Shown here piece after piece: positions 3,288 through 48,883 of a DNA stretch of 64,000 nucleotides (positions are counted from its first letter, which is position 1; each line of letters opens with the position of its first letter). The DNA comes from Candidatus Peregrinibacteria bacterium CG10_big_fil_rev_8_21_14_0_10_49_16 (GTDB taxonomy: Bacteria; Patescibacteriota; Gracilibacteria; Peribacterales; Peribacteraceae), in NCBI GenBank assembly GCA_002772605.1, contig PFDS01000040.1:14862-78861 (forward strand), written 5' to 3'. The notes beneath the pieces are model-generated. The model worked only from the letters and a program-made list of their open reading frames with translations, ran no database searches and was not told the DNA's origin. The translations under genes were made by a program, and so were the position numbers.

Positions 3288-4027
3288 GCCCCGCCGACAC
3301 AAAATCAGAGACACCTGAAAAAAAAGCACCGAGTACTGTGCGCAAACGCAAGTCACAACAAGTGAATGCCACGCAACGATACCTTCCTATCGGAGAAATC
3401 CGTAATGACACGATATCACTAAAAAATGGAGGCCTGCGTGCTGTACTTCAAGTTGAAGCAATAAACTTTAACCTGAAGAGTGAAACGGAGCAGGAAGCTA
3501 TCATTGCCGGCTACGGATCATTCGTCAATACACTCTCCTTCCCCGTTCAAATCATCGTACGTTCAACGCATATCAATATTGATAGCTATCTCAAATACCT
3601 CCAGGGAAAAGCACAAGAGCAAACGAATGAACTGCTTCAAGAACAAACATTTGCCTATATCGCGTTCATTAACCGTCTTCTTGAAGTGTCAGACATTATG
3701 CAAAAGCGCTTTTATGTCATCGTCCCTTACGATAAAAGCGAGCGTAAAAAAACACTACTGGAAAAATTCTTCGATTGGTTGCACCCGGAAGACTCTGTTG
3801 GAAAAGCTGCCCAGAGATTTCGAGAGTTCAATCAATTCGTCAAAAAACTTAATGAGCGTGTGGAGCTTATTGAAGCAGGACTGGGCAACATCGGACTCCA
3901 TACGAGCCGCTTACGCACCCGAGAGCTTATCGACCTCTATTACAACATCTACAATCCAGAAACTAGCCAACGGCAGAAAATTCCTGAAAATCTTGAAGAT
4001 CTAAAAATGGATGACACAACATTGTAG
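3284..4027 (+). CDS. VirB4/TcpF N-terminal-domain-like protein without an ATPase domain
   Basis: 247 aa. The segment YLPIGEIRNDTISLKNGGLRAVLQVEAINFNLKSETEQEAIIAGYGSFVNTLSFPVQIIV resembles the N-terminal region of Gram-positive-type VirB4 ATPases. No Walker motifs are present. Confidence 0.4.
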   Translation: MSPADTKSETPEKKAPSTVRKRKSQQVNATQRYLPIGEIRNDTISLKNGGLRAVLQVEAINFNLKSETEQEAIIAGYGSFVNTLSFPVQIIVRSTHINIDSYLKYLQGKAQEQTNELLQEQTFAYIAFINRLLEVSDIMQKRFYVIVPYDKSERKKTLLEKFFDWLHPEDSVGKAAQRFREFNQFVKKLNERVELIEAGLGNIGLHTSRLRTRELIDLYYNIYNPETSQRQKIPENLEDLKMDDTTL

Positions 4028-4144
4028 ATCGACTTTGACAAATATAACAAGAGGTGGGAAAATAAGAACGCAATGTGTTGCTCGTGCAAGGACACATGCA
4101 CATACTGTTTTCTCTATTTTTTTCCACTTGCACCTTCCTTTTCT

Positions 4145-7426: not shown

Positions 7427-7717
7427 ATGATGCGCAATCTTCTACGCCATATCTGGTACCTACCCCGCAACCTCATTGTTGCAGGCATCACCCTATATCA
7501 AAAAACCCTTTCCCCTGATCACGGTCCATTGCACCCTCTCTATCCGTACGGCTACTGCAGGCATCACCCAACATGCTCCGAATACGGAAAACAGGCAGTA
7601 CAGAAACATGGATGCATTCTTGGACTGCTCCTCATTATACGTCGCCTCCTCACTTGCCATCCCTGGCAAACGCCATCACAAGAAAGGATACATATGCTTC
7701 TTATGGATCAAGGTTAA
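7427..7717 (+). CDS. yidD: membrane protein insertion efficiency factor YidD
   Basis: Motifs LYQKTLSP and CRHHPTCSEYGKQAVQKHG are typical of YidD. Confidence 0.85.
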   Translation: MMRNLLRHIWYLPRNLIVAGITLYQKTLSPDHGPLHPLYPYGYCRHHPTCSEYGKQAVQKHGCILGLLLIIRRLLTCHPWQTPSQERIHMLLMDQG

Positions 7718-7992
7718 CGTTTCCTAGTCTTCTCTGCCTTACTCTTCAACTCCGCCCACATTCTTCTTACCCATGGCAAAGATAGCGTTGAAATAGTGTA
7801 GCCTCCTGTGGGAACCAAGGCTGATAAGTAGAAACCTTCAATGCCGATTTGCCAAAGAAACACACAGGCAGTGATATAGGTAATGCCTGCAATAATGCCC
7901 CTCCTCGTGAGACTGGTTTCCCACGCTTTTTCCATTTCCACACGCTTATTGCGCTCAAGGATTTTGAAAATCTGTTCCTCCATACAAAACAA
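7714..7992 (-). CDS. hypothetical small membrane protein
   Basis: 92 aa with two predicted TM segments. No family recognised. Confidence 0.4.
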   Translation of the reverse strand: MFCMEEQIFKILERNKRVEMEKAWETSLTRRGIIAGITYITACVFLWQIGIEGFYLSALVPTGGYTISTLSLPWVRRMWAELKSKAEKTRKR

Positions 7993-8015
7993 AGTCTATC
8001 AGAAATACTCTGAGC

Positions 8016-41342: not shown

Positions 41343-42689
41343 ATGATTCCGGATACAACAGTCAATCCACTGTCACCCGCGGGCACACGATTCTCCGCAC
41401 TCACACGTACAGACCCCGATGTACTGGCAACTATTCTTGGCGAAGAACGGCGAGAAAGAGAAGGTGTGGAACTCATAGCATCGGAAAACTATGTCTCTGG
41501 GGCAGTTTTGGAGGCATTAGGCAGCGTTTTCACGAATAAATACTCAGAAGGATACCCTGGAAAACGGTACTACGGCGGACAGGAATTTACCGATGCAGTA
41601 GAAACACTTGCCATTGCACGCGCAAAAACGCTGTTTGATTGCGACCATGCAAACGTACAACCTTCATCCGGTGCAGGTGCAAATATTGCGGTGTATCACG
41701 CATGGTTGGAACCAGGAGATACCGTTCTTGGTATGGATCTCACACATGGCGGACACCTCACACATGGCGCTCCCGTAACCCATATGGCTAAACTCTTCAA
41801 TTTCGTGCGGTATAAAATGAAGGACATTGAAACTGGAGAAATTGACTACGATGCATTAAGAGAGATGGCAAAACAGCAAAAACCCAAAATCATCCTTGCA
41901 GGATTTTCCGCGTACCCCCGAGAACTGAACTACCGTGCATTCAAGGAAATTGCTGATGAGGTAGGCGCTATTGCCATGGCAGACATGGCACATATTTCAG
42001 GGTTGATTGCGGCAGGCGTTGCCCATAATCCCTTTGATGACGGATTCAATATTATGACTACAACAACACACAAAACCCTGCGCGGTCCGCGAGGCGCAAT
42101 GATTCTCTCCAAAGGAACCGTAGGAAATCCACTGAAAGCCCCGGAAAAAACAATCGATAATCTCCCAACACTCATTGACCGCAGCGTGTTTCCAGGACTC
42201 CAAGGCGGACCACACATGCACCAAACGGCCGCAATTGCCGTGGCACTGGGTGAGGCAATGAAACCCGAATTTCGGGAGTACGGAAAACAAGTACTCAAGA
42301 ATGCAAAACATCTGGCTGCTTTCCTCATGAACAATGGGTGCAAGCTCGTCACAAATGGTACGGATAATCACCTCATGGTGCTTGACTGCATCCAATCATT
42401 TGGTCTTGATGGCAAAGAGGTGGAACACATCCTGGATTTTGTAGGCATCACCACCAGCAAGAGCACAATACCGGATGATCCCAACCCCCCATTCAAACCA
42501 TCAGGTCTTCGTCTGGGAACTCCTGCCGTCACTACGCGCGGCATGAAAGAGAAGGACATGGAAATTCTCGGCATGTTTATGCTCCAAGCCATCACTCATA
42601 AAGCAGACGAGACGCACCGGCTAAAAATACAAGAAGAAGTAAAAACTTTCTGTAGTCAATTCCCAGTCCCGGGAATTACCGGCCGATAG
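41343..42689 (+). CDS. glyA: serine hydroxymethyltransferase
   Basis: ELIASENYVS, TTTTHKTLRGPRG (PLP lysine). Confidence 0.92.
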   Translation: MIPDTTVNPLSPAGTRFSALTRTDPDVLATILGEERREREGVELIASENYVSGAVLEALGSVFTNKYSEGYPGKRYYGGQEFTDAVETLAIARAKTLFDCDHANVQPSSGAGANIAVYHAWLEPGDTVLGMDLTHGGHLTHGAPVTHMAKLFNFVRYKMKDIETGEIDYDALREMAKQQKPKIILAGFSAYPRELNYRAFKEIADEVGAIAMADMAHISGLIAAGVAHNPFDDGFNIMTTTTHKTLRGPRGAMILSKGTVGNPLKAPEKTIDNLPTLIDRSVFPGLQGGPHMHQTAAIAVALGEAMKPEFREYGKQVLKNAKHLAAFLMNNGCKLVTNGTDNHLMVLDCIQSFGLDGKEVEHILDFVGITTSKSTIPDDPNPPFKPSGLRLGTPAVTTRGMKEKDMEILGMFMLQAITHKADETHRLKIQEEVKTFCSQFPVPGITGR

Positions 42690-42869
42690 AAGACAGCAAG
42701 AGAAAGCCACGTATCGAACAAAAATTGTATCCAAACAATATTCGCTATAAGAAGGCAATGGGAAGATGTTGCACAAAAAAAATGCACAGACTACGATGAC
42801 ATGATTTATTTGATCGAAGAGTCGTTCAAATGAATCATTGATCCTTAAGCGCCTGCGACTTAGCGCCCA

Positions 42870-43360
42870 CAAAACAAACACACACATGCCAGTCCCTATG
42901 GACTGGCACCCTCCGGACCCAGACCACTCTGGTCTGGGTCCAAACCTTTCGCTCCTTCCCATCATCAACATTCAAACAGAGAGAAGACTGGTCATGCGTG
43001 CTGATGCACTCGTTCTTCCCGGCCGATCTTCTGCGTCTCTTCCGCCAATACTGGGTACAAGAAACGTGTTTGTAGGGTGCTGCGTGACCACTCTTCTCTC
43101 TGCTCTGCGATGCTACGTACCATACATATTGCCTTGAGGATGCAGTACGGTACGCACAAATACTTCCCAGTGTTCCCCATGGCCTTTAAGTAGCCTTGTT
43201 CGGTGAACCGGTACGGGAACTTCGCCCGGTCACGAGGAGAAACAAGCGACCAGAGCACTGCAGAGAGAGGAGGAATCCTCACCTCAATTTCCTTCGCTTT
43301 AGCGGCTCAGTAGCCCATAGCGCTACCGATAGCCTGAAGGAAATCAACACACATACAAAA
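42870..43360. ncRNA. candidate large structured non-coding RNA (family and strand unknown)
   Basis: About 700 nt lie between convergent genes with no credible ORF. Helices: 42888-42907 (8 bp), 42915-42941 (12 bp), 42977-42994 pairing with 43085-43102 (17 of 18 bp), 43116-43154 and 43287-43344. Confidence 0.3.
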
Positions 43361-43386
43361 AGGCCCCGTAAGAGGCCTTTTTGTTA
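43361..43386. terminator. bidirectional terminator-like hairpin
   Basis: AAAAAGGCC-N8-GGCCTTTTT, immediately downstream of the minus-strand gene ending at 43399. Confidence 0.55.
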
Positions 43387-43398
43387 TAAAGAAAATTT

Positions 43399-44874
43399 TT
43401 ATAGCGTTTCCTGTAGCCTCTTTAAGAAAGCAATCTTGCGCTGCAAAAAGTGGTATTTCGCTGTATTCCAGTATCCCGCCATTTCAGCCGTCATTTCGCT
43501 TGCATAACCAAGTGCTTCATAGACTCCCGGAGCTGCAGCTGCCAGTAAGAGTTGTCCTTCACAGTTTTGTAGTATTTCACTAACCTTCTGCTTATACATT
43601 GCCAAAAATCGTTCTTGAGCAGATGCTACTTTTTCATCAGAAAAAACTCCTGCTTCCTCCGCACGCTTCAAAAGCCTTTTAAACGCTGGAACACGATCTT
43701 CAGCATTACCAGGCACGACATTCATGATAGCAACATCAGGATCGCCTTTTCCTAATCCTCGTACAAATTCAGAAAATGCTGTGGCAGCAGATGCTTGTTG
43801 TAATGCTTCTTTTCGGCATGTTTCGCGAATTTCCTCTGAGATATTCCCAGATGAGTCTAATGTAAATAGCACCTCCGTATAGTTTTCGATATTGGTCATC
43901 ATTGTGCTTTCCTTGCCTTCAATACTTTCCTCCAATGTTTTATTCATCATTGCCAAATTGTACTTCACCCAGGACTCGCCCCATCCAGAACTATTATGAC
44001 CAAACTGTCCTTGGATAGCATCACTGAGATGTACAACAACAGCCGCGGAGTCATCCGGAAGACGAACCATGTAGTAGTCCGGCTCAGCACCAAAGGCACG
44101 AAAAGCACCTAACCGTGCCATCTTCTCTGGAAACTCTCCTCGACCATGTCCGGCAGCTGTCCCAGCGATAACTTCTGCATACCCTTCAGGAAGGGTAATA
44201 CTCTGATTCCCTATTTTTATATCAGAAAAAATAGAAGTATTGCCAAGCTCGGCCGCTGTACGTGCGCTTAGTACTTCATGGTTAAATAAAGAAAAAAAGT
44301 TATCGCCTTTATCTATACCAAAAGAACGTAAATTACCCTCACTGTCTGCTCGACGTGCATACTTCGCCATATCATGCACTGCTGCAGCAAGAATTGTGCG
44401 TAATTTATCGGACTTTGATAAATTCGTACCCTGTACAAGTTTCATCGCTAAACCAATAACTTCCTTATGATGCTTTATTTCTGTCTCCAAACGAGCAGGA
44501 GAAAAGGCTGCTGGATCGTTTTTACGCATGAGAGCTTCTGATACACCAAGAATACGAGCGGTCAATTCATTCACTAATGTATCGAAGTCCTCATCGCTCA
44601 ACTCATCAATTTGAGCTTCAGCACGAGCAATATCGACACGCTCGTTTCTTGTTGCTACAGCATCTGCATACCTATTCACCAATCCTGCCATTGCTGAACG
44701 ATCTTTTTCAAACTCCGTTTGTGCAACTCCGTCTATCTGGTCTACCACAGACTCACAGAGCTTTTTCCGTTCTGCACTAAGTGCATGTATCTGCTCCACT
44801 CGCAGAAAAGCATCTTCTGGCACAGGTACTCTTTGTGAGTCCAAGTTATCAAATTCCCTATTTTCAATATCCAT
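43399..44874 (-). CDS. hypothetical protein with a possible HD-domain core
   Basis: H..(n)..HD pattern: IKHHKEV...AAAVHDMAKY...FNHEV. The start is moved to the ATG at 44874 to avoid overlap with divergent dgkA. Confidence 0.5.
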   Translation of the reverse strand: MDIENREFDNLDSQRVPVPEDAFLRVEQIHALSAERKKLCESVVDQIDGVAQTEFEKDRSAMAGLVNRYADAVATRNERVDIARAEAQIDELSDEDFDTLVNELTARILGVSEALMRKNDPAAFSPARLETEIKHHKEVIGLAMKLVQGTNLSKSDKLRTILAAAVHDMAKYARRADSEGNLRSFGIDKGDNFFSLFNHEVLSARTAAELGNTSIFSDIKIGNQSITLPEGYAEVIAGTAAGHGRGEFPEKMARLGAFRAFGAEPDYYMVRLPDDSAAVVVHLSDAIQGQFGHNSSGWGESWVKYNLAMMNKTLEESIEGKESTMMTNIENYTEVLFTLDSSGNISEEIRETCRKEALQQASAATAFSEFVRGLGKGDPDVAIMNVVPGNAEDRVPAFKRLLKRAEEAGVFSDEKVASAQERFLAMYKQKVSEILQNCEGQLLLAAAAPGVYEALGYASEMTAEMAGYWNTAKYHFLQRKIAFLKRLQETL

Positions 44875-44946
44875 AAGCAAAATTGGTATCTCTGTAAAAG
44901 CTCCTTCCAGTATAGCAAATAATGATTTTGCTGTACACTGCGCCTC

Positions 44947-45321
44947 ATGCGATCTGCAGTAGCTAGTTTTAATCATGCATGGCAGGGCATCTGTCACGCA
45001 CTTGCCACCGAACGTAATTTACAACTGTTCTTAGGTACATACATCCTCATCCTCATTCTGGGATACATGGTCACACTCCAATCCTGGGAATGGACTGCAC
45101 TCATGCTCTCCGGAGGAGGGTTTCTTGTAACAGAACTCCTGAACACTGCATTGGAAAGACTCGTTGATGCCGTCGATGACATTCGCAGAAAAGAAGACAT
45201 CACGCTTCCCCGCCACGCCAAACTCAAAGCAACTAAAGATGTCGCTTCCAGTGCATCTCTCGTGGCATTGGGGATAACAGGAATAGTGATTTTGATGATA
45301 TTTGTGCCAAGGATGTTCTAG
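44947..45321 (+). CDS. dgkA: diacylglycerol/undecaprenol kinase (DgkA family)
   Basis: 124 aa, three TM segments, motifs ERNLQLF and ELLNTALERLVDAVD. Confidence 0.8.
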   Translation: MRSAVASFNHAWQGICHALATERNLQLFLGTYILILILGYMVTLQSWEWTALMLSGGGFLVTELLNTALERLVDAVDDIRRKEDITLPRHAKLKATKDVASSASLVALGITGIVILMIFVPRMF

Positions 45322-45458: not shown

Positions 45459-48176
45459 CTATGCTGCCCCCTTCCCTTTCTCCCTATCCTCCTTCGCCTG
45501 CAACATGGACTTACTGGGTGGTGGAACACCGCAGGTCTTTTTTAGTTTTTCCTCGAGATCTTTCATCTGTTGCCTTTCGTCATCCGTCAGTGCCTCACCT
45601 AAAAACTCCTTCTTACGCAGCGCATTGAATTCATTCTTCCACATCTCCTGGTCACGCCACTTGCGATAGTCCTCAAGGGACATCTTTTTCGCACGCGCCT
45701 TTTTCTTCTCCTCTTCTTCTTTCTCTGCCTGCTTAGCCTGGTACTTCGTATTCTTTGCAGCCACCACAGCACTCGATAACCACTGCGAAATTTTCTCCTC
45801 TACGATTTCACGTTTTTCGGAGTACCGCTCACGAGAAAGAAGACGAATCTTCTCTGTGCGATCTTCGCTCTTCTGAAAATTCGGCGGAGGCAGTGTGCTC
45901 ACGGAAAACGGCTTACTCGGAAAACCGTCAATCAGTAACCGCATGTAGACGTGATACTTCGGTAAGCTGAGAATATCCTTTGGTGTCACCATTTCTTCAA
46001 ACTGTAAACTCATCACTTCGGCATCATCCGACCCAACTTGAAAACTCAGCAGTGTTCCCACGTTCCCAAACACCGCATCACGCAGCGTGGTATTACGGTC
46101 TCCGAGAAGGAGTTGCGTCACGTATTGGTTCGCCATAGTGAGGCTCAAACGATATTTTCGTGCCTCACTGAGAATAGTGGCAAAGGACTCAGTGGCAAAG
46201 TTCTGAAACTCATCCACAAAGAGGAAGAAATCACGACGATCCTTTTCGGGAATATCCGCACGACTCATGGCGTCAATCTGGAATTTCGTCACGAGCATGG
46301 AACCGAGAAACGCTGCCGTGTCTTCTCCGATTTTTCCTTTACTCAAGTTCACCAACACAATCTTCCCCGTATCCATCGCATGACGCAGATCAAGCCGCGA
46401 ACGCACCTGCCCGATAATATTGCGCATGAGCGGACTGGAAAGGAGCTGACCAATCTTATTCTGAATCGCAGCCGTTGCTTCCACCTGGTACTTCTCCGTC
46501 CAGCTGGCAAACTCCGCCTCCCAGAAACTCTTCACGGTGGGATCCGTCACTTTCGCAACAATTTTCGCACGGTACGCCGCATCACTGAACATGCGAGGAA
46601 TGCCCAACATGGACGCATCGCCTGCTTCAACAAGCGCAAGCAGCGTATTGCGCAAAATGTGCTCCATGCGTCCGCTCCACACATCAGGCCAAATCTTGGT
46701 AAATACACTCATGAGCCCAGACACAATCAATGATCGCTGTTCCGGAATATGACACTCCAATACATTGAACGACAACGGAAAATTTCGATCGGATGGATCG
46801 AAGAGAATCACATCATTCATCCGCCGTTTTGGTATAAGTTGCAAAATGGAATCAATGAGATCTCCATGAGGATCAATCACACCCACTCCTCTTCCTGCAA
46901 AGATATCACTGAAAATCATGTTCTCCAAAAACACCGATTTACCCATACCTGTTTTACCGATCATATACACATGACGCCGTCTATCTTCCCTTTGAATGCC
47001 AAAACGAATGCGTTTACCTCGGTAGACCGCCTCACCAAGTGTTGTAAGTTCCGTGTCGTTCTGTTTTGTAATGAGCGGAAGGTTGATAGGAGGTTCCAAC
47101 TTCTTGCTGGAAACACGATCGAAGTTCGGCGTCTGCACGAGTGCTGTCGGTATGTGCCAAATCGTTGCCACCTCCTCAGAGGAAAGCACATACGAACTCT
47201 TCATCGAAGAGGGTAACTGCGGCAGTACACGAGAACGCAAGAGAATAAATCCATTGCAATGAGGCAGTGTAAACTGCTGAAAACTGCTCGCAATTTCCTG
47301 CACCTTCACTTCAGCATCGACACAATGCTGCTTCGGAGTAATAACATTAATATGCACACTCGACCGAAAGAGAAGACGATTCACCTTATCGACAGCCGCA
47401 GTAGTGCTATCTTCACGATCATGGCCGCGAGTGTTAATTTGTGATGTCAGCTCAATGCCTTCTTCGGAAAAAACCGGCTCTCCTTCCTGTGGAGGAGTGG
47501 CAATCTGTGAAATGGGCGCAAGCCATACGCGAAAACCTCCAAAGAACATATGAAACGGAAGATAGAGAAGCCACGTGAATCCTCGCGAGAGAGAGGCCCG
47601 CGTGAGAAGTTTTGCATACCTGTTGGAGTACTTGGAAAGACCTTTACTCAAGAACGGAATGAGTTTTAGTGCTCGGCGACGGTACGACCCGCTCACAGGA
47701 CGAAGCAGGACCTGCACGTGTCCACGCATACCCTCTTGAGGGTACTGCACAAGCGCAGACGTAATCCCGGCAATCGTGTCGACGTTTTGACGACTCGAGA
47801 CATCAGCGAATTGGCTGTAGCGTTTAATAGGGAACACTTCCGGTGCCGCAAGGCACAAATCAGCAGACACAACTTTCTCTCCTTCAGACACGGCAAACGT
47901 CTCCAGAGGGACTTCTTCAATTTCCGCATCAGGATACTGTCCGTAGAACTGGCTTTGGAGAAGTGCAGCCGTCCTCCTGCTGACACGTGCATACAACCCC
48001 ACCTTCCCATGAGCAAAGCCAATTTCAAGTGATACGTCAGAATCCGCGCCACGCAGTGCATGAATCGCAGACAGAACAGATTCCATCATAAGGGGTCCAC
48101 GCGCAGTCGTACTCTCTTCCGGATCAGGCATCGGAGGACGAATAAGGAGCAGTACTGTTTCAGTAGACGGTTTCAT
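45459..48176 (-). CDS. type IV secretion coupling-protein-like (TraD/VirD4-type) P-loop ATPase with a large N-terminal domain
   Basis: Walker A IGKTGMGKS; Walker B-like FLFVDEFQNF. About 380 aa of unrecognised N-terminal region and a K/E-rich tail. The ATG at 48176 forms an ATGA overlap with the hrcA stop. Confidence 0.7.
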   Translation of the reverse strand: MKPSTETVLLLIRPPMPDPEESTTARGPLMMESVLSAIHALRGADSDVSLEIGFAHGKVGLYARVSRRTAALLQSQFYGQYPDAEIEEVPLETFAVSEGEKVVSADLCLAAPEVFPIKRYSQFADVSSRQNVDTIAGITSALVQYPQEGMRGHVQVLLRPVSGSYRRRALKLIPFLSKGLSKYSNRYAKLLTRASLSRGFTWLLYLPFHMFFGGFRVWLAPISQIATPPQEGEPVFSEEGIELTSQINTRGHDREDSTTAAVDKVNRLLFRSSVHINVITPKQHCVDAEVKVQEIASSFQQFTLPHCNGFILLRSRVLPQLPSSMKSSYVLSSEEVATIWHIPTALVQTPNFDRVSSKKLEPPINLPLITKQNDTELTTLGEAVYRGKRIRFGIQREDRRRHVYMIGKTGMGKSVFLENMIFSDIFAGRGVGVIDPHGDLIDSILQLIPKRRMNDVILFDPSDRNFPLSFNVLECHIPEQRSLIVSGLMSVFTKIWPDVWSGRMEHILRNTLLALVEAGDASMLGIPRMFSDAAYRAKIVAKVTDPTVKSFWEAEFASWTEKYQVEATAAIQNKIGQLLSSPLMRNIIGQVRSRLDLRHAMDTGKIVLVNLSKGKIGEDTAAFLGSMLVTKFQIDAMSRADIPEKDRRDFFLFVDEFQNFATESFATILSEARKYRLSLTMANQYVTQLLLGDRNTTLRDAVFGNVGTLLSFQVGSDDAEVMSLQFEEMVTPKDILSLPKYHVYMRLLIDGFPSKPFSVSTLPPPNFQKSEDRTEKIRLLSRERYSEKREIVEEKISQWLSSAVVAAKNTKYQAKQAEKEEEEKKKARAKKMSLEDYRKWRDQEMWKNEFNALRKKEFLGEALTDDERQQMKDLEEKLKKTCGVPPPSKSMLQAKEDREKGKGAA

Positions 48177-48883
48177 GCAGAACACAGTAGATCAGATACG
48201 CACTCCAAAGCCACGGTGTTATATGCATAATCCATACGCATGGGACCAACAATACCTAAAGCCCCACGGTGACCACGCATACTGTACTGCGTCACAATTA
48301 TGCTACAACTCTGCATTTGCGGTAACAGGTGCTCTTCTCCAATGTAGTATCGTACCTGTCTATCAACATTCACGGTCTGCAGTAAGTCAACGAGCCTGCC
48401 CTCCAATACTTCCACAACACCCGACGCAAGTGATTGGTCCGCAAGAAACTCCGGTAACCGCAAAGTATTGGCAAGACCCAGGTAGTGTACATGATGCTTA
48501 TGCGGAACCGTGGCAAATGCGATATTGGGAATCATATTGGAGAGAAGGGCCACCGCCTCGTAGACACGTTCCTGATCTTTACGTTGAAAGTATTGCTCTC
48601 GCAGAACATCGAAACGCTTGCGCACAATGCGTTCCTGTTGAGACGGTTCCATGAACTCCTTCACATATGCCCGATACCCTTTCGCTGTCGGAACACGTCC
48701 TGCGGAAATATGCGGCTGCATCAAAAATCCCTCATCTTCCAAATGGGCCATCTCATGACGAATGGTTGCCGGCGACACAATAAATGCCCCGCTCTCCAAA
48801 AGGCTTTTCGAACCTACAGGCAGTGCTGTGTGAATAAACTGGTCAATAATGGCAATGAGAAGCTTGCTTTGCCGTACATTCAT
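48173..48883 (-). CDS. hrcA: heat-inducible transcription repressor HrcA (short form)
   Basis: MNVRQSKLLIAIIDQFIHTALPVGSKSL (wHTH) and C-terminal LGIVGPMRMDY. At 236 aa it is shorter than typical HrcA. Confidence 0.8.
   Translation of the reverse strand: MNVRQSKLLIAIIDQFIHTALPVGSKSLLESGAFIVSPATIRHEMAHLEDEGFLMQPHISAGRVPTAKGYRAYVKEFMEPSQQERIVRKRFDVLREQYFQRKDQERVYEAVALLSNMIPNIAFATVPHKHHVHYLGLANTLRLPEFLADQSLASGVVEVLEGRLVDLLQTVNVDRQVRYYIGEEHLLPQMQSCSIIVTQYSMRGHRGALGIVGPMRMDYAYNTVALECVSDLLCSA

Follow-up and report, generated by a model that had tools for sequence, protein, structure and literature searches.

The locus and the boundaries of the transcription unit

This analysis concerns a 709-nt gap in a 64,000-nt stretch of contig PFDS01000040.1 from Candidatus Peregrinibacteria bacterium CG10_big_fil_rev_8_21_14_0_10_49_16 (family Peribacteraceae), hereafter denoted the window. 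Two genes converge on the gap: glyA (41343-42689, + strand; PF00464) and a gene for a 532-aa HD-domain protein (43399-44997, - strand). An initial annotation, made from the letters of the window, had singled the gap out as unusual among tight spacers, and a crude call of open reading frames (ORFs) bears this out, with a median intergenic gap of 15 nt and only four gaps exceeding 300 nt. We consider it highly probable that the gap contains a free-standing + strand gene for a structured non-coding RNA (ncRNA) of ~580 nt, which belongs to an undescribed family and most likely acts in trans. A large structured ncRNA was what the initial annotation had proposed; conserved boundaries, homologues in other genomes, covariation of paired positions, the lack of a coding signal and the lack of an Rfam match all favour that proposal.

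The predicted mature transcript (42803-43382, + strand; 580 nt) begins with a conserved GAUUU and extends through the U-run of the terminator, both ends being predictions. The promoter, with a -35 element TTGCAC, a 17-nt spacer and a -10 element TACGAT (42769-42797, + strand), had been guessed from the single sequence, and comparison identifies it as conserved throughout the family: all of the 67 distinct copies that we extracted, from 60-odd genomes, carry TTG(C)-N17/18-TAnnAT, with the conserved GAUUU starting 4-6 nt downstream. At the other end, a CA-rich linker (43345-43356, + strand) stands directly before a U-tailed intrinsic terminator (A-run, GC stem and U-run; 43357-43382, + strand). 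The terminator hairpin with its U-run occurs in 67/67 copies, with differing stem sequences, as does a hairpin at the 5′ end; the length of the copies ranges from 377 to 673 nt (median 514). The edges of conservation are sharp in an alignment of 20 oriented loci, where the left edge is formed by the TTGC-N17/18-TAnnAT promoter, followed after 4-6 nt by GAUUUG..., and the right edge by ACACAAACACAAAAAGG-stem-loop-CCUUUUU; sequence beyond these edges is not conserved. Judged by sequence, every copy resembles an independent sigma-70 transcription unit with an intrinsic terminator, and transcription would be expected to start from the RNA's own sigma-70-type promoter and to end at the terminator.

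The helices named in the initial annotation had been left without a strand. The orientation of promoter and terminator, together with an excess of G-U (9.8% of cells) over A-C (3.7%) across the consensus pairs, places the RNA on the + strand in our reading; owing to this excess, the structure would be 88.4% paired on the + strand and 82.3% on the - strand. A minus-strand RNA was raised by the fold stability of the single sequence, which on both strands is well above that of dinucleotide shuffles and more so on the - strand (z = -6.0 for the + strand and -9.7 for the - strand), and was rejected on the same two lines of evidence. The terminator hairpin is symmetric (A5-stem-U5; 43355-43386) and is also called by a minus-strand terminator scan, so it probably ends the convergent HD-domain gene as well; the bidirectional terminator annotated at 43361-43386 is present at that site.

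These features bear on whether the region might instead be a cis element of a neighbouring gene, i.e. a leader, a long 3′ untranslated region (UTR) belonging to glyA or, on the - strand, that of the HD-domain gene. Such an assignment could draw on the fact that the region abuts the glyA stop codon, on the terminator that it has in common with the HD-domain gene, and on the lower fold z-score of the - strand. It is nonetheless very unlikely, given that the RNA has its own promoter in 67/67 copies, that the G-U excess favours the + strand, that the downstream gene is convergent, which leaves no room for a leader, and that the neighbours differ, both between the two types of locus in the family (a tetratricopeptide repeat (TPR) protein and a membrane protein at one, the side of an ATPase resembling the coupling protein of type IV secretion systems (T4SS) at the other) and among distant homologues.

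Four ORFs of 96-116 aa overlap the gap, and many genomes contain more than one copy of the element, as might be expected if this were not an RNA gene at all but a decayed or small-protein gene, a DNA repeat or a mobile element. The ORFs had been described as unconvincing in composition, and a Pfam search gave no match for any of the four. Variability among the copies has no three-base periodicity, 15 of the 16 indels relative to the same-genus homologue are not multiples of three, so that frames are broken even between close relatives, and the longest open frame among the copies is 58-201 aa; the decayed protein gene named in the initial annotation as a refutation of its proposal thus finds no support. 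The copies also lie in a conserved syntenic block of the chromosome (with gyrA and rsmI) and have neither terminal repeats nor a transposase, and compensatory changes that include G-U pairs are a signal at the level of RNA. We regard the probability that the element is not an RNA gene as practically negligible.

Covariation and architecture of the fold

RNAalifold, applied to a MAFFT alignment of the 3′ core, predicted 34 pairs, with compensatory changes in 17. A covariance model built from this alignment (R1) matches the window at 43102-43283 with 133 bits, and was used to collect and align 66 copies. Core pairs were counted in the R1 alignment, to which a second pseudoknot stem (S2), absent from the model, was added afterwards. 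With the pseudoknot included, 93.4% of cells are in standard pairs, compared with 80.2% in shuffled alignments and 38-47% when the pairing partners are slid. Double changes are seen in 29/39 pairs (363 cells), and the observed values were reached by 0/500 shuffles. For S2, which lies outside the model, 97.3% of cells pair, and one of its pairs has 28 double changes (GGUC/GACC to GGUU/AACC and others), such that the two stems of this H-type pseudoknot are supported independently of each other.

The full-length fold was checked with 67 RNAs, aligned by MAFFT (E-INS-i) without regard to structure and folded with RNAalifold. This gave 90 pairs, with 88.4% of cells paired (44-48% in slid controls) and double changes in 62 of them. 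Covariation had been named in the initial annotation as a means to check its proposal; in core and full-length counts alike, the result stands far above the slid controls. The fold, including a 20-bp long-range helix and the H-type pseudoknot, is supported by compensatory changes.

The structure is described here from 5′ to 3′, all features being on the + strand. The 5′-terminal hairpin P1 (GAUUUA...UGAAUC; 42803-42836), present in all copies, has 83.7% of its cells paired (~45% when slid) and double changes in 5/5 pairs. A CA-rich single-stranded linker, CACAAAACAAACACACACA (42867-42887), keeps its composition (ACACAAACACA) across copies, and leads into a variable region with two strong GC-rich hairpins (42888-42907 and 42915-42941). 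These hairpins are lineage-specific, being present in diverged form in the same-genus copy and absent or different in other genera. The next block, CGCUCCUUCCCAUCAUCAA (42950-42968; family consensus GAUCCUUCACACCACCG), is conserved and unpaired; its sequence is kept in most copies, and no pairing partner for it was found. We also considered a pairing of the conserved block CCUUCACACC with GGUGAA, which was discarded as it shows no covariation.

The long-range helix P-long (42976-42995 with 43084-43103) comprises 20 covarying pairs. In the structure-blind alignment 87.5% of its cells are paired, compared with 35-49% when slid, and 15/20 pairs are double-changed (177 cells). P-long encloses an optional inserted domain (42996-43083), which is short or missing in several genera. 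Every helix that had been named in the initial annotation is present at its coordinates. Comparison with 66 other copies extends the helix annotated at 42977-42994/43085-43102 to the 20 bp of P-long, and finds the stem at 43116-43154 to be a conserved, covarying hairpin and the pairing across 43287-43344 to be a conserved helix of the tail. The two GC-rich hairpins of the variable region (42888-42907, 42915-42941) do not share this status, as they lack a counterpart in most other genera.

The core junction (43102-43261) is closed by GCUCUGC (43102-43108) with GCACUGC (43255-43261); five of the seven pairs of this closing helix are double-changed, as in GCUCCAU/AUGGGGC and CCUGCAU/AUGCGGG. A different register, CUCUGC/GCAGAG, which RNAalifold proposed on the full-length alignment, was rejected since variants such as GCUCCAU/AUGGGGC fit only GCUCUGC/GCAAGGC. 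Within the junction, the conserved core hairpin (43116-43154; stem 43116-43125/43145-43154) has double changes in 7/8 pairs and 94% of cells paired. It is followed by a helix UUCCC/GGGAA (43164-43168 with 43215-43219; overall 43164-43219) that encloses a further hairpin (43170-43181/43196-43209). For this helix and the enclosed hairpin, 99.7% and 95.7% of cells are paired and 3/5 and 5/6 pairs are double-changed, respectively. The alignment columns of the same segment contain two invariant unpaired motifs, CAGUG and CCGGUAC.

The H-type pseudoknot (43220-43251) completes the core, and covariation supports both of its stems. S1 pairs CUUCGY with RCGAGG (43220-43225 with 43232-43237; 97.7% paired), and S2 pairs GGUC with GACC (43228-43231 with 43248-43251). 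Loop 3 (43238-43247) is A-rich, AGAAACAAGC in the window and AGAAACAAGA in the family, and includes a near-invariant GAGGAGAAACAAGA. Classical H-type pseudoknots with an A-rich third loop are found in telomerase RNA, in the SAM-II and preQ1-II aptamers and in viral frameshift signals. The present pseudoknot resembles them in having a stem 1 of 6 bp, a stem 2 of 4-5 bp, a loop 2 of ~0 nt and a 10-nt A-rich loop 3, whose predicted position would let it occupy the minor groove of stem 1. It differs from them in being one module of the junction of a larger RNA (400-670 nt), with no ligand, frameshift site or template evident.

Downstream of the core, a hairpin with a conserved pyrimidine loop (..UCCUC..; 43270-43285) has covariation in all 4 of its predicted stem pairs, and its loop motif CCUC is kept in most copies and is, like GAGGAG, invariant or close to it. 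A kissing or tertiary contact between the CUCCUC loop and GAGGAG was considered; it is suggestive in two sequences (GAGGAU with AUCCUC) and is unsupported overall. The tail domain (43287-43344) has an outer helix, AUUUCCUUC/GAAGGAAAU (43287-43295 with 43336-43344), which covaries by eye (CUUUCAC/GUGAAAG, UUCCC/GGGAA) and weakly so in a duplex-energy permutation test (p = 0.02). In the inner tail helix, GGCUCA-hairpin-GAUAGCC (43304-43314 with 43322-43334), 10/10 pairs are double-changed and 89% of cells are paired. The tail domain is missing in some divergent second copies.

Homologues, known RNA families and genomic context

BLAST searches among 61 relatives found the whole region in a genome of the same genus, at 77% identity (81% by global alignment) over the whole length. 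In 27 genera of the family, a core of 60-130 nt (window ~43160-43295) was matched with 70-88% identity, frequently at more than one place in a genome; there was no match in 24 other families. Homologues are abundant by the more sensitive measure of the R1 model, which matches 188/200 genomes of the family, 145/151 of those of high quality and 81/84 genera; a search for homologues had been suggested in the initial annotation, and its outcome is in favour of the proposal made there. The number of copies per genome is one to three and commonly two; it is two in both single-contig genomes and one in the source genome and in its congener.

A broader model (R2), with which 401 genomes of the class were searched, found the RNA in 63/65 sampled family members. 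Weaker matches, of 19-39 bits, came from three other families (f17, f35 and f8), and f13 and f30 gave marginal matches. Five of the stronger f8, f17 and f35 matches were read by eye. All five have a consensus promoter, the same closing helix and first hairpin, an A-rich loop 3, and a terminator-like hairpin or U-run, and the 5′ end of the f8 and f17 copies is of the GAUUU or GAUAUG type. The f17 and f35 copies keep the H-type pseudoknot in other letters (CUCAU/AUGAG plus GGUA/UACC; ACGGUCC/GGACUGU plus UGGC/GCCA). We take these matches as evidence that homologues, weak in sequence but convincing in structure, exist in three or more further families of the class. One complete 1.9-Mb genome from another family contains two nearly identical AT-rich distant homologues (L157 and L158; G052:C1, at ~690 kb and ~411 kb); upstream of each stand two or three promoter-like repeats in tandem, TTGAACCTAAAWTCCGGGRTAGCTAAAAT, ~45-90 nt apart.

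Beyond the class, no match at E <= 0.001 was obtained in a sample of roughly 375 genomes that represent other classes of the phylum. The exact core 21-mer CACGAGGAGAAACAAGAGACC occurs 65 times in a collection of one genome from each of 185,579 species, and 64 of these occurrences are in genomes labelled Peribacteria, Peribacteraceae, Peregrinibacteria or Patescibacteria. The remaining one lies on a 29-kb contig (JALCBQ010000024.1; L122) that is part of a metagenome-assembled genome labelled Pirellulaceae but probably belongs to Peribacteria and was mis-binned. A full-text literature search gave no paper that connects Peribacteria with an RNA of this kind, and none is mentioned in the 2016 paper on complete Peribacteria genomes (PMC4736985).

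At the gathering threshold, Rfam 15 matches only four tRNAs in the window, all elsewhere, with nothing in the gap and nothing in 19 homologous loci. With relaxed thresholds (E <= 10 for window positions 42600-43500, E <= 1 for 20 homologous loci), nothing relevant was found, only weak terminator look-alikes appearing near the region. OLE, ROOL, GOLLD, raiA, HEARO, 6S and signal recognition particle (SRP) RNAs and group I/II introns gave no Rfam match either in the window or in the homologous loci, and RNase P RNA (RF00010/RF00011) gave none at E <= 10 in 42600-43500. ARAGORN found no tRNA-like domain in 42500-43600. An Rfam scan for these families had been the first check proposed in the initial annotation; that none of them matches is consistent with an uncatalogued ncRNA, and to judge from these searches the RNA belongs to no described family.

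The possibility of a highly diverged known RNA (RNase P RNA, tmRNA, 6S, SRP, an intron, OLE, ROOL, GOLLD, raiA or HEARO) that Rfam models miss deserves mention, as genomes of the candidate phyla radiation (CPR) often carry divergent RNAs and the source assembly (92.8% complete, 57 contigs) has neither a match to RF00010 nor a tmRNA detected by RF00023 or ARAGORN. It is, however, extremely unlikely. RF00010 is matched at a different locus in 38/41 genomes of the family, and tmRNA (RF00023; ~400 nt) scores above the cut-off at other loci in 7/10 relatives sampled; the same-genus genome has both elsewhere and carries, in addition, a homologue of 42803-43382. Absence from the source assembly therefore looks like an assembly gap. 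A divergent RNase P RNA was rejected because relatives carry an ordinary one at another locus, and a divergent tmRNA because relatives carry tmRNA elsewhere and a tRNA-like domain is lacking here. The null results at E <= 10 and E <= 1, and the presence of one to three copies per genome, none of them inside a gene, also speak against a diverged known RNA. With RNase P RNA and tmRNA the present RNA shares near-universality in its lineage, peripheral helices that vary around a strongly conserved core, and a promoter and terminator of its own; it differs from them in that both are present separately in relatives, in that their defining motifs (RF00010, RF00023) are undetected here, and in its restriction to one class of one phylum.

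In many genomes two copies converge across an interval of 20-33 kb. This interval is the same syntenic block in two genera, comprising genes for a TPR protein, rsmI, gyrA and the T4SS-coupling-like ATPase (the gene names are partly read from the sequences). In these two genera the bracketed block is ~28 kb long; such a block is bracketed in G012:C2:244643-272729, in G024:C1:187970-215493 and in approximately ten other genomes. The copy in the window corresponds to that at the ATPase end of the block: a 908-aa ATPase is encoded at 45459-48185, with gyrA and rsmI at a greater distance, and the same-genus copy is at the same locus. At the other type of locus, a membrane-protein gene diverges from the copy on one side and a TPR-protein gene converges on it from the other. 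The genus of the window has kept only the ATPase-side copy.

The neighbours of the distant homologues have none in common with the loci in the family, and no conserved neighbour was found. Since neighbours vary between copies and lineages, the RNA does not seem to be tied to a particular gene, nor to be a mobile element. A mobile element between the two copies was considered separately and rejected, the interval being ordinary syntenic chromosome; a cis-regulatory leader or riboswitch was rejected because the downstream gene is convergent at both types of locus, the RNA ends in a terminator, and its neighbours are not conserved outside the family. In a comparison of copies L010, L012, L069, L070, L073, L078, L085 and L087 with L066, L074 and L083, the second copies fall into distinct 5′-end types, GAACCC... 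and GAUAUGAAAC..., as opposed to GAUUUG..., and some are without the tail domain. This suggests that the duplication is old and that the paralogues have since diverged.

Upstream of the promoter, the box GAACAAAAATTGTATCC (42716-42732, + strand) is a degenerate 17-bp palindrome with the consensus GAATACA-N3-TGTATTC. Most of the 67 copies have the palindrome at a constant spacing from the promoter, its centre being ~43 bp upstream of the -35 element and at roughly -79 from the start. This arrangement suggests a candidate transcription-factor site, at which a dimeric DNA-binding protein would control expression of the RNA. Better copies of the palindrome occur on another contig of the source genome (C32:2973-2989 and 4008-4081), upstream of uncharacterised ORFs, and the palindromes could form the putative operator of a small regulon.

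The otherwise tightly packed window has another ORF-free gap, at 7431-8015 (585 nt). It has no Rfam match at the gathering threshold and no match to the RNA models built from the 42803-43382 family.

Possible function and significance

We think it most likely that the RNA is stable and acts in trans, because its neighbours differ between copies and lineages and its terminator faces a convergent gene. The invariant unpaired CAGUG, CCGGUAC and GAGGAGAAACAAGA cluster around the pseudoknot and the junction, which suggests a specific partner or an active site. We therefore favour, as most likely, an RNA that forms the core of a ribonucleoprotein, or else one that is catalytic or self-assembling. 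Such a distribution of invariant unpaired bases is what binding surfaces or active sites typically show, and a base-pairing regulator is accordingly less favoured. Few bacterial RNAs are both large and intricately folded, and those whose function has been solved are mostly ribozymes or the cores of ribonucleoproteins.

Some of the conserved single-stranded elements might also be read as the binding sites of a regulatory sponge or decoy, which titrates a global RNA-binding protein or the small ribosomal subunit in the manner of CsrB, CrcZ or 6S RNA. There are two conserved CA/A-rich single-stranded linkers, one of them directly before the terminator; two further candidate sites, a Shine-Dalgarno (SD)-like GAGGAG and an anti-SD-like CCUC loop, are invariant or nearly so, and the conserved upstream operator suggests conditional expression. 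Known sponges, however, consist of many repeated simple motifs in loops, not of a single covarying, pseudoknotted junction, and the GAGG here is paired in pseudoknot stem S1. Furthermore, tblastn searches of the 92.8%-complete assembly with Hfq and CsrA queries gave no credible homologue, the best CsrA-like match being inside the gene for ribosomal protein S1. An Hfq or CsrA sponge is thus not supported, and a sponge for another partner is possible; a sponge of any kind seems unlikely overall.

For the free-standing, trans-acting structured RNA that we prefer, several points have to be set on the other side of the balance. The core alignment used for the main pair count was fitted to the model's own structure, and kinship of the sequences inflates the shuffle controls; slid controls and the structure-blind alignment mitigate both biases without removing them. 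As noted above, the single sequence folds more stably on the - strand. The promoter of the window copy is not called by a strict consensus scan, the consensus being that of E. coli, and the window copy of the upstream palindrome is degenerate, with 3 mismatches. A scaffold or catalytic function, moreover, is suggested by analogy and by the pattern of invariant unpaired bases.

The nearest known counterparts are OLE, ROOL, GOLLD, raiA motif RNA and HEARO, a group of ornate orphan bacterial ncRNAs of ~400-700 nt. The present RNA is of the same size class and, like them, has a (nearly) free-standing gene, many covarying helices, a pseudoknot or multi-helix junction, invariant unpaired nucleotides, optional inserted domains and a restricted lineage; as with them, the function is not deducible from sequence. 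It matches none of their Rfam models, and its hosts are Peribacteria of the CPR, a radiation of ultra-small uncultured bacteria, rather than Firmicutes, phages or prophages. Unlike ROOL and GOLLD it is not tied to prophages or tRNA clusters, and unlike OLE, with its oapA/B/C, it lacks partner genes that are conserved outside the family. Near-universality in a family, commonly with two chromosomal paralogues, also distinguishes it from all five. OLE, ROOL, GOLLD and raiA are long-standing puzzles in their own right.

The clear boundaries, the covariation-backed model and the distant homologues with the same fold provide a basis for structure work, for a search for partners and for curation in Rfam, and natural minimal variants (377-433 nt) without the peripheral domains, some of them also without the tail domain, offer experimental material. 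Annotation of Peribacteria genomes would also be improved, as the locus at present either appears as a gap without explanation or is overlaid with spurious ORFs. More tentatively, there is some chance that the RNA represents a new class of large housekeeping RNA of Peribacteria and their relatives, i.e. a ribozyme or an RNA-only or RNA-protein machine with the invariant pseudoknot junction at its centre, with two diverged paralogues in distinct roles and a function indispensable to hosts with tiny genomes. The host genomes, of ~1 Mb, face strong pressure to lose dispensable DNA, and yet they commonly keep two copies of a 400-670-nt RNA gene, which argues for an important role of the RNA in these bacteria.

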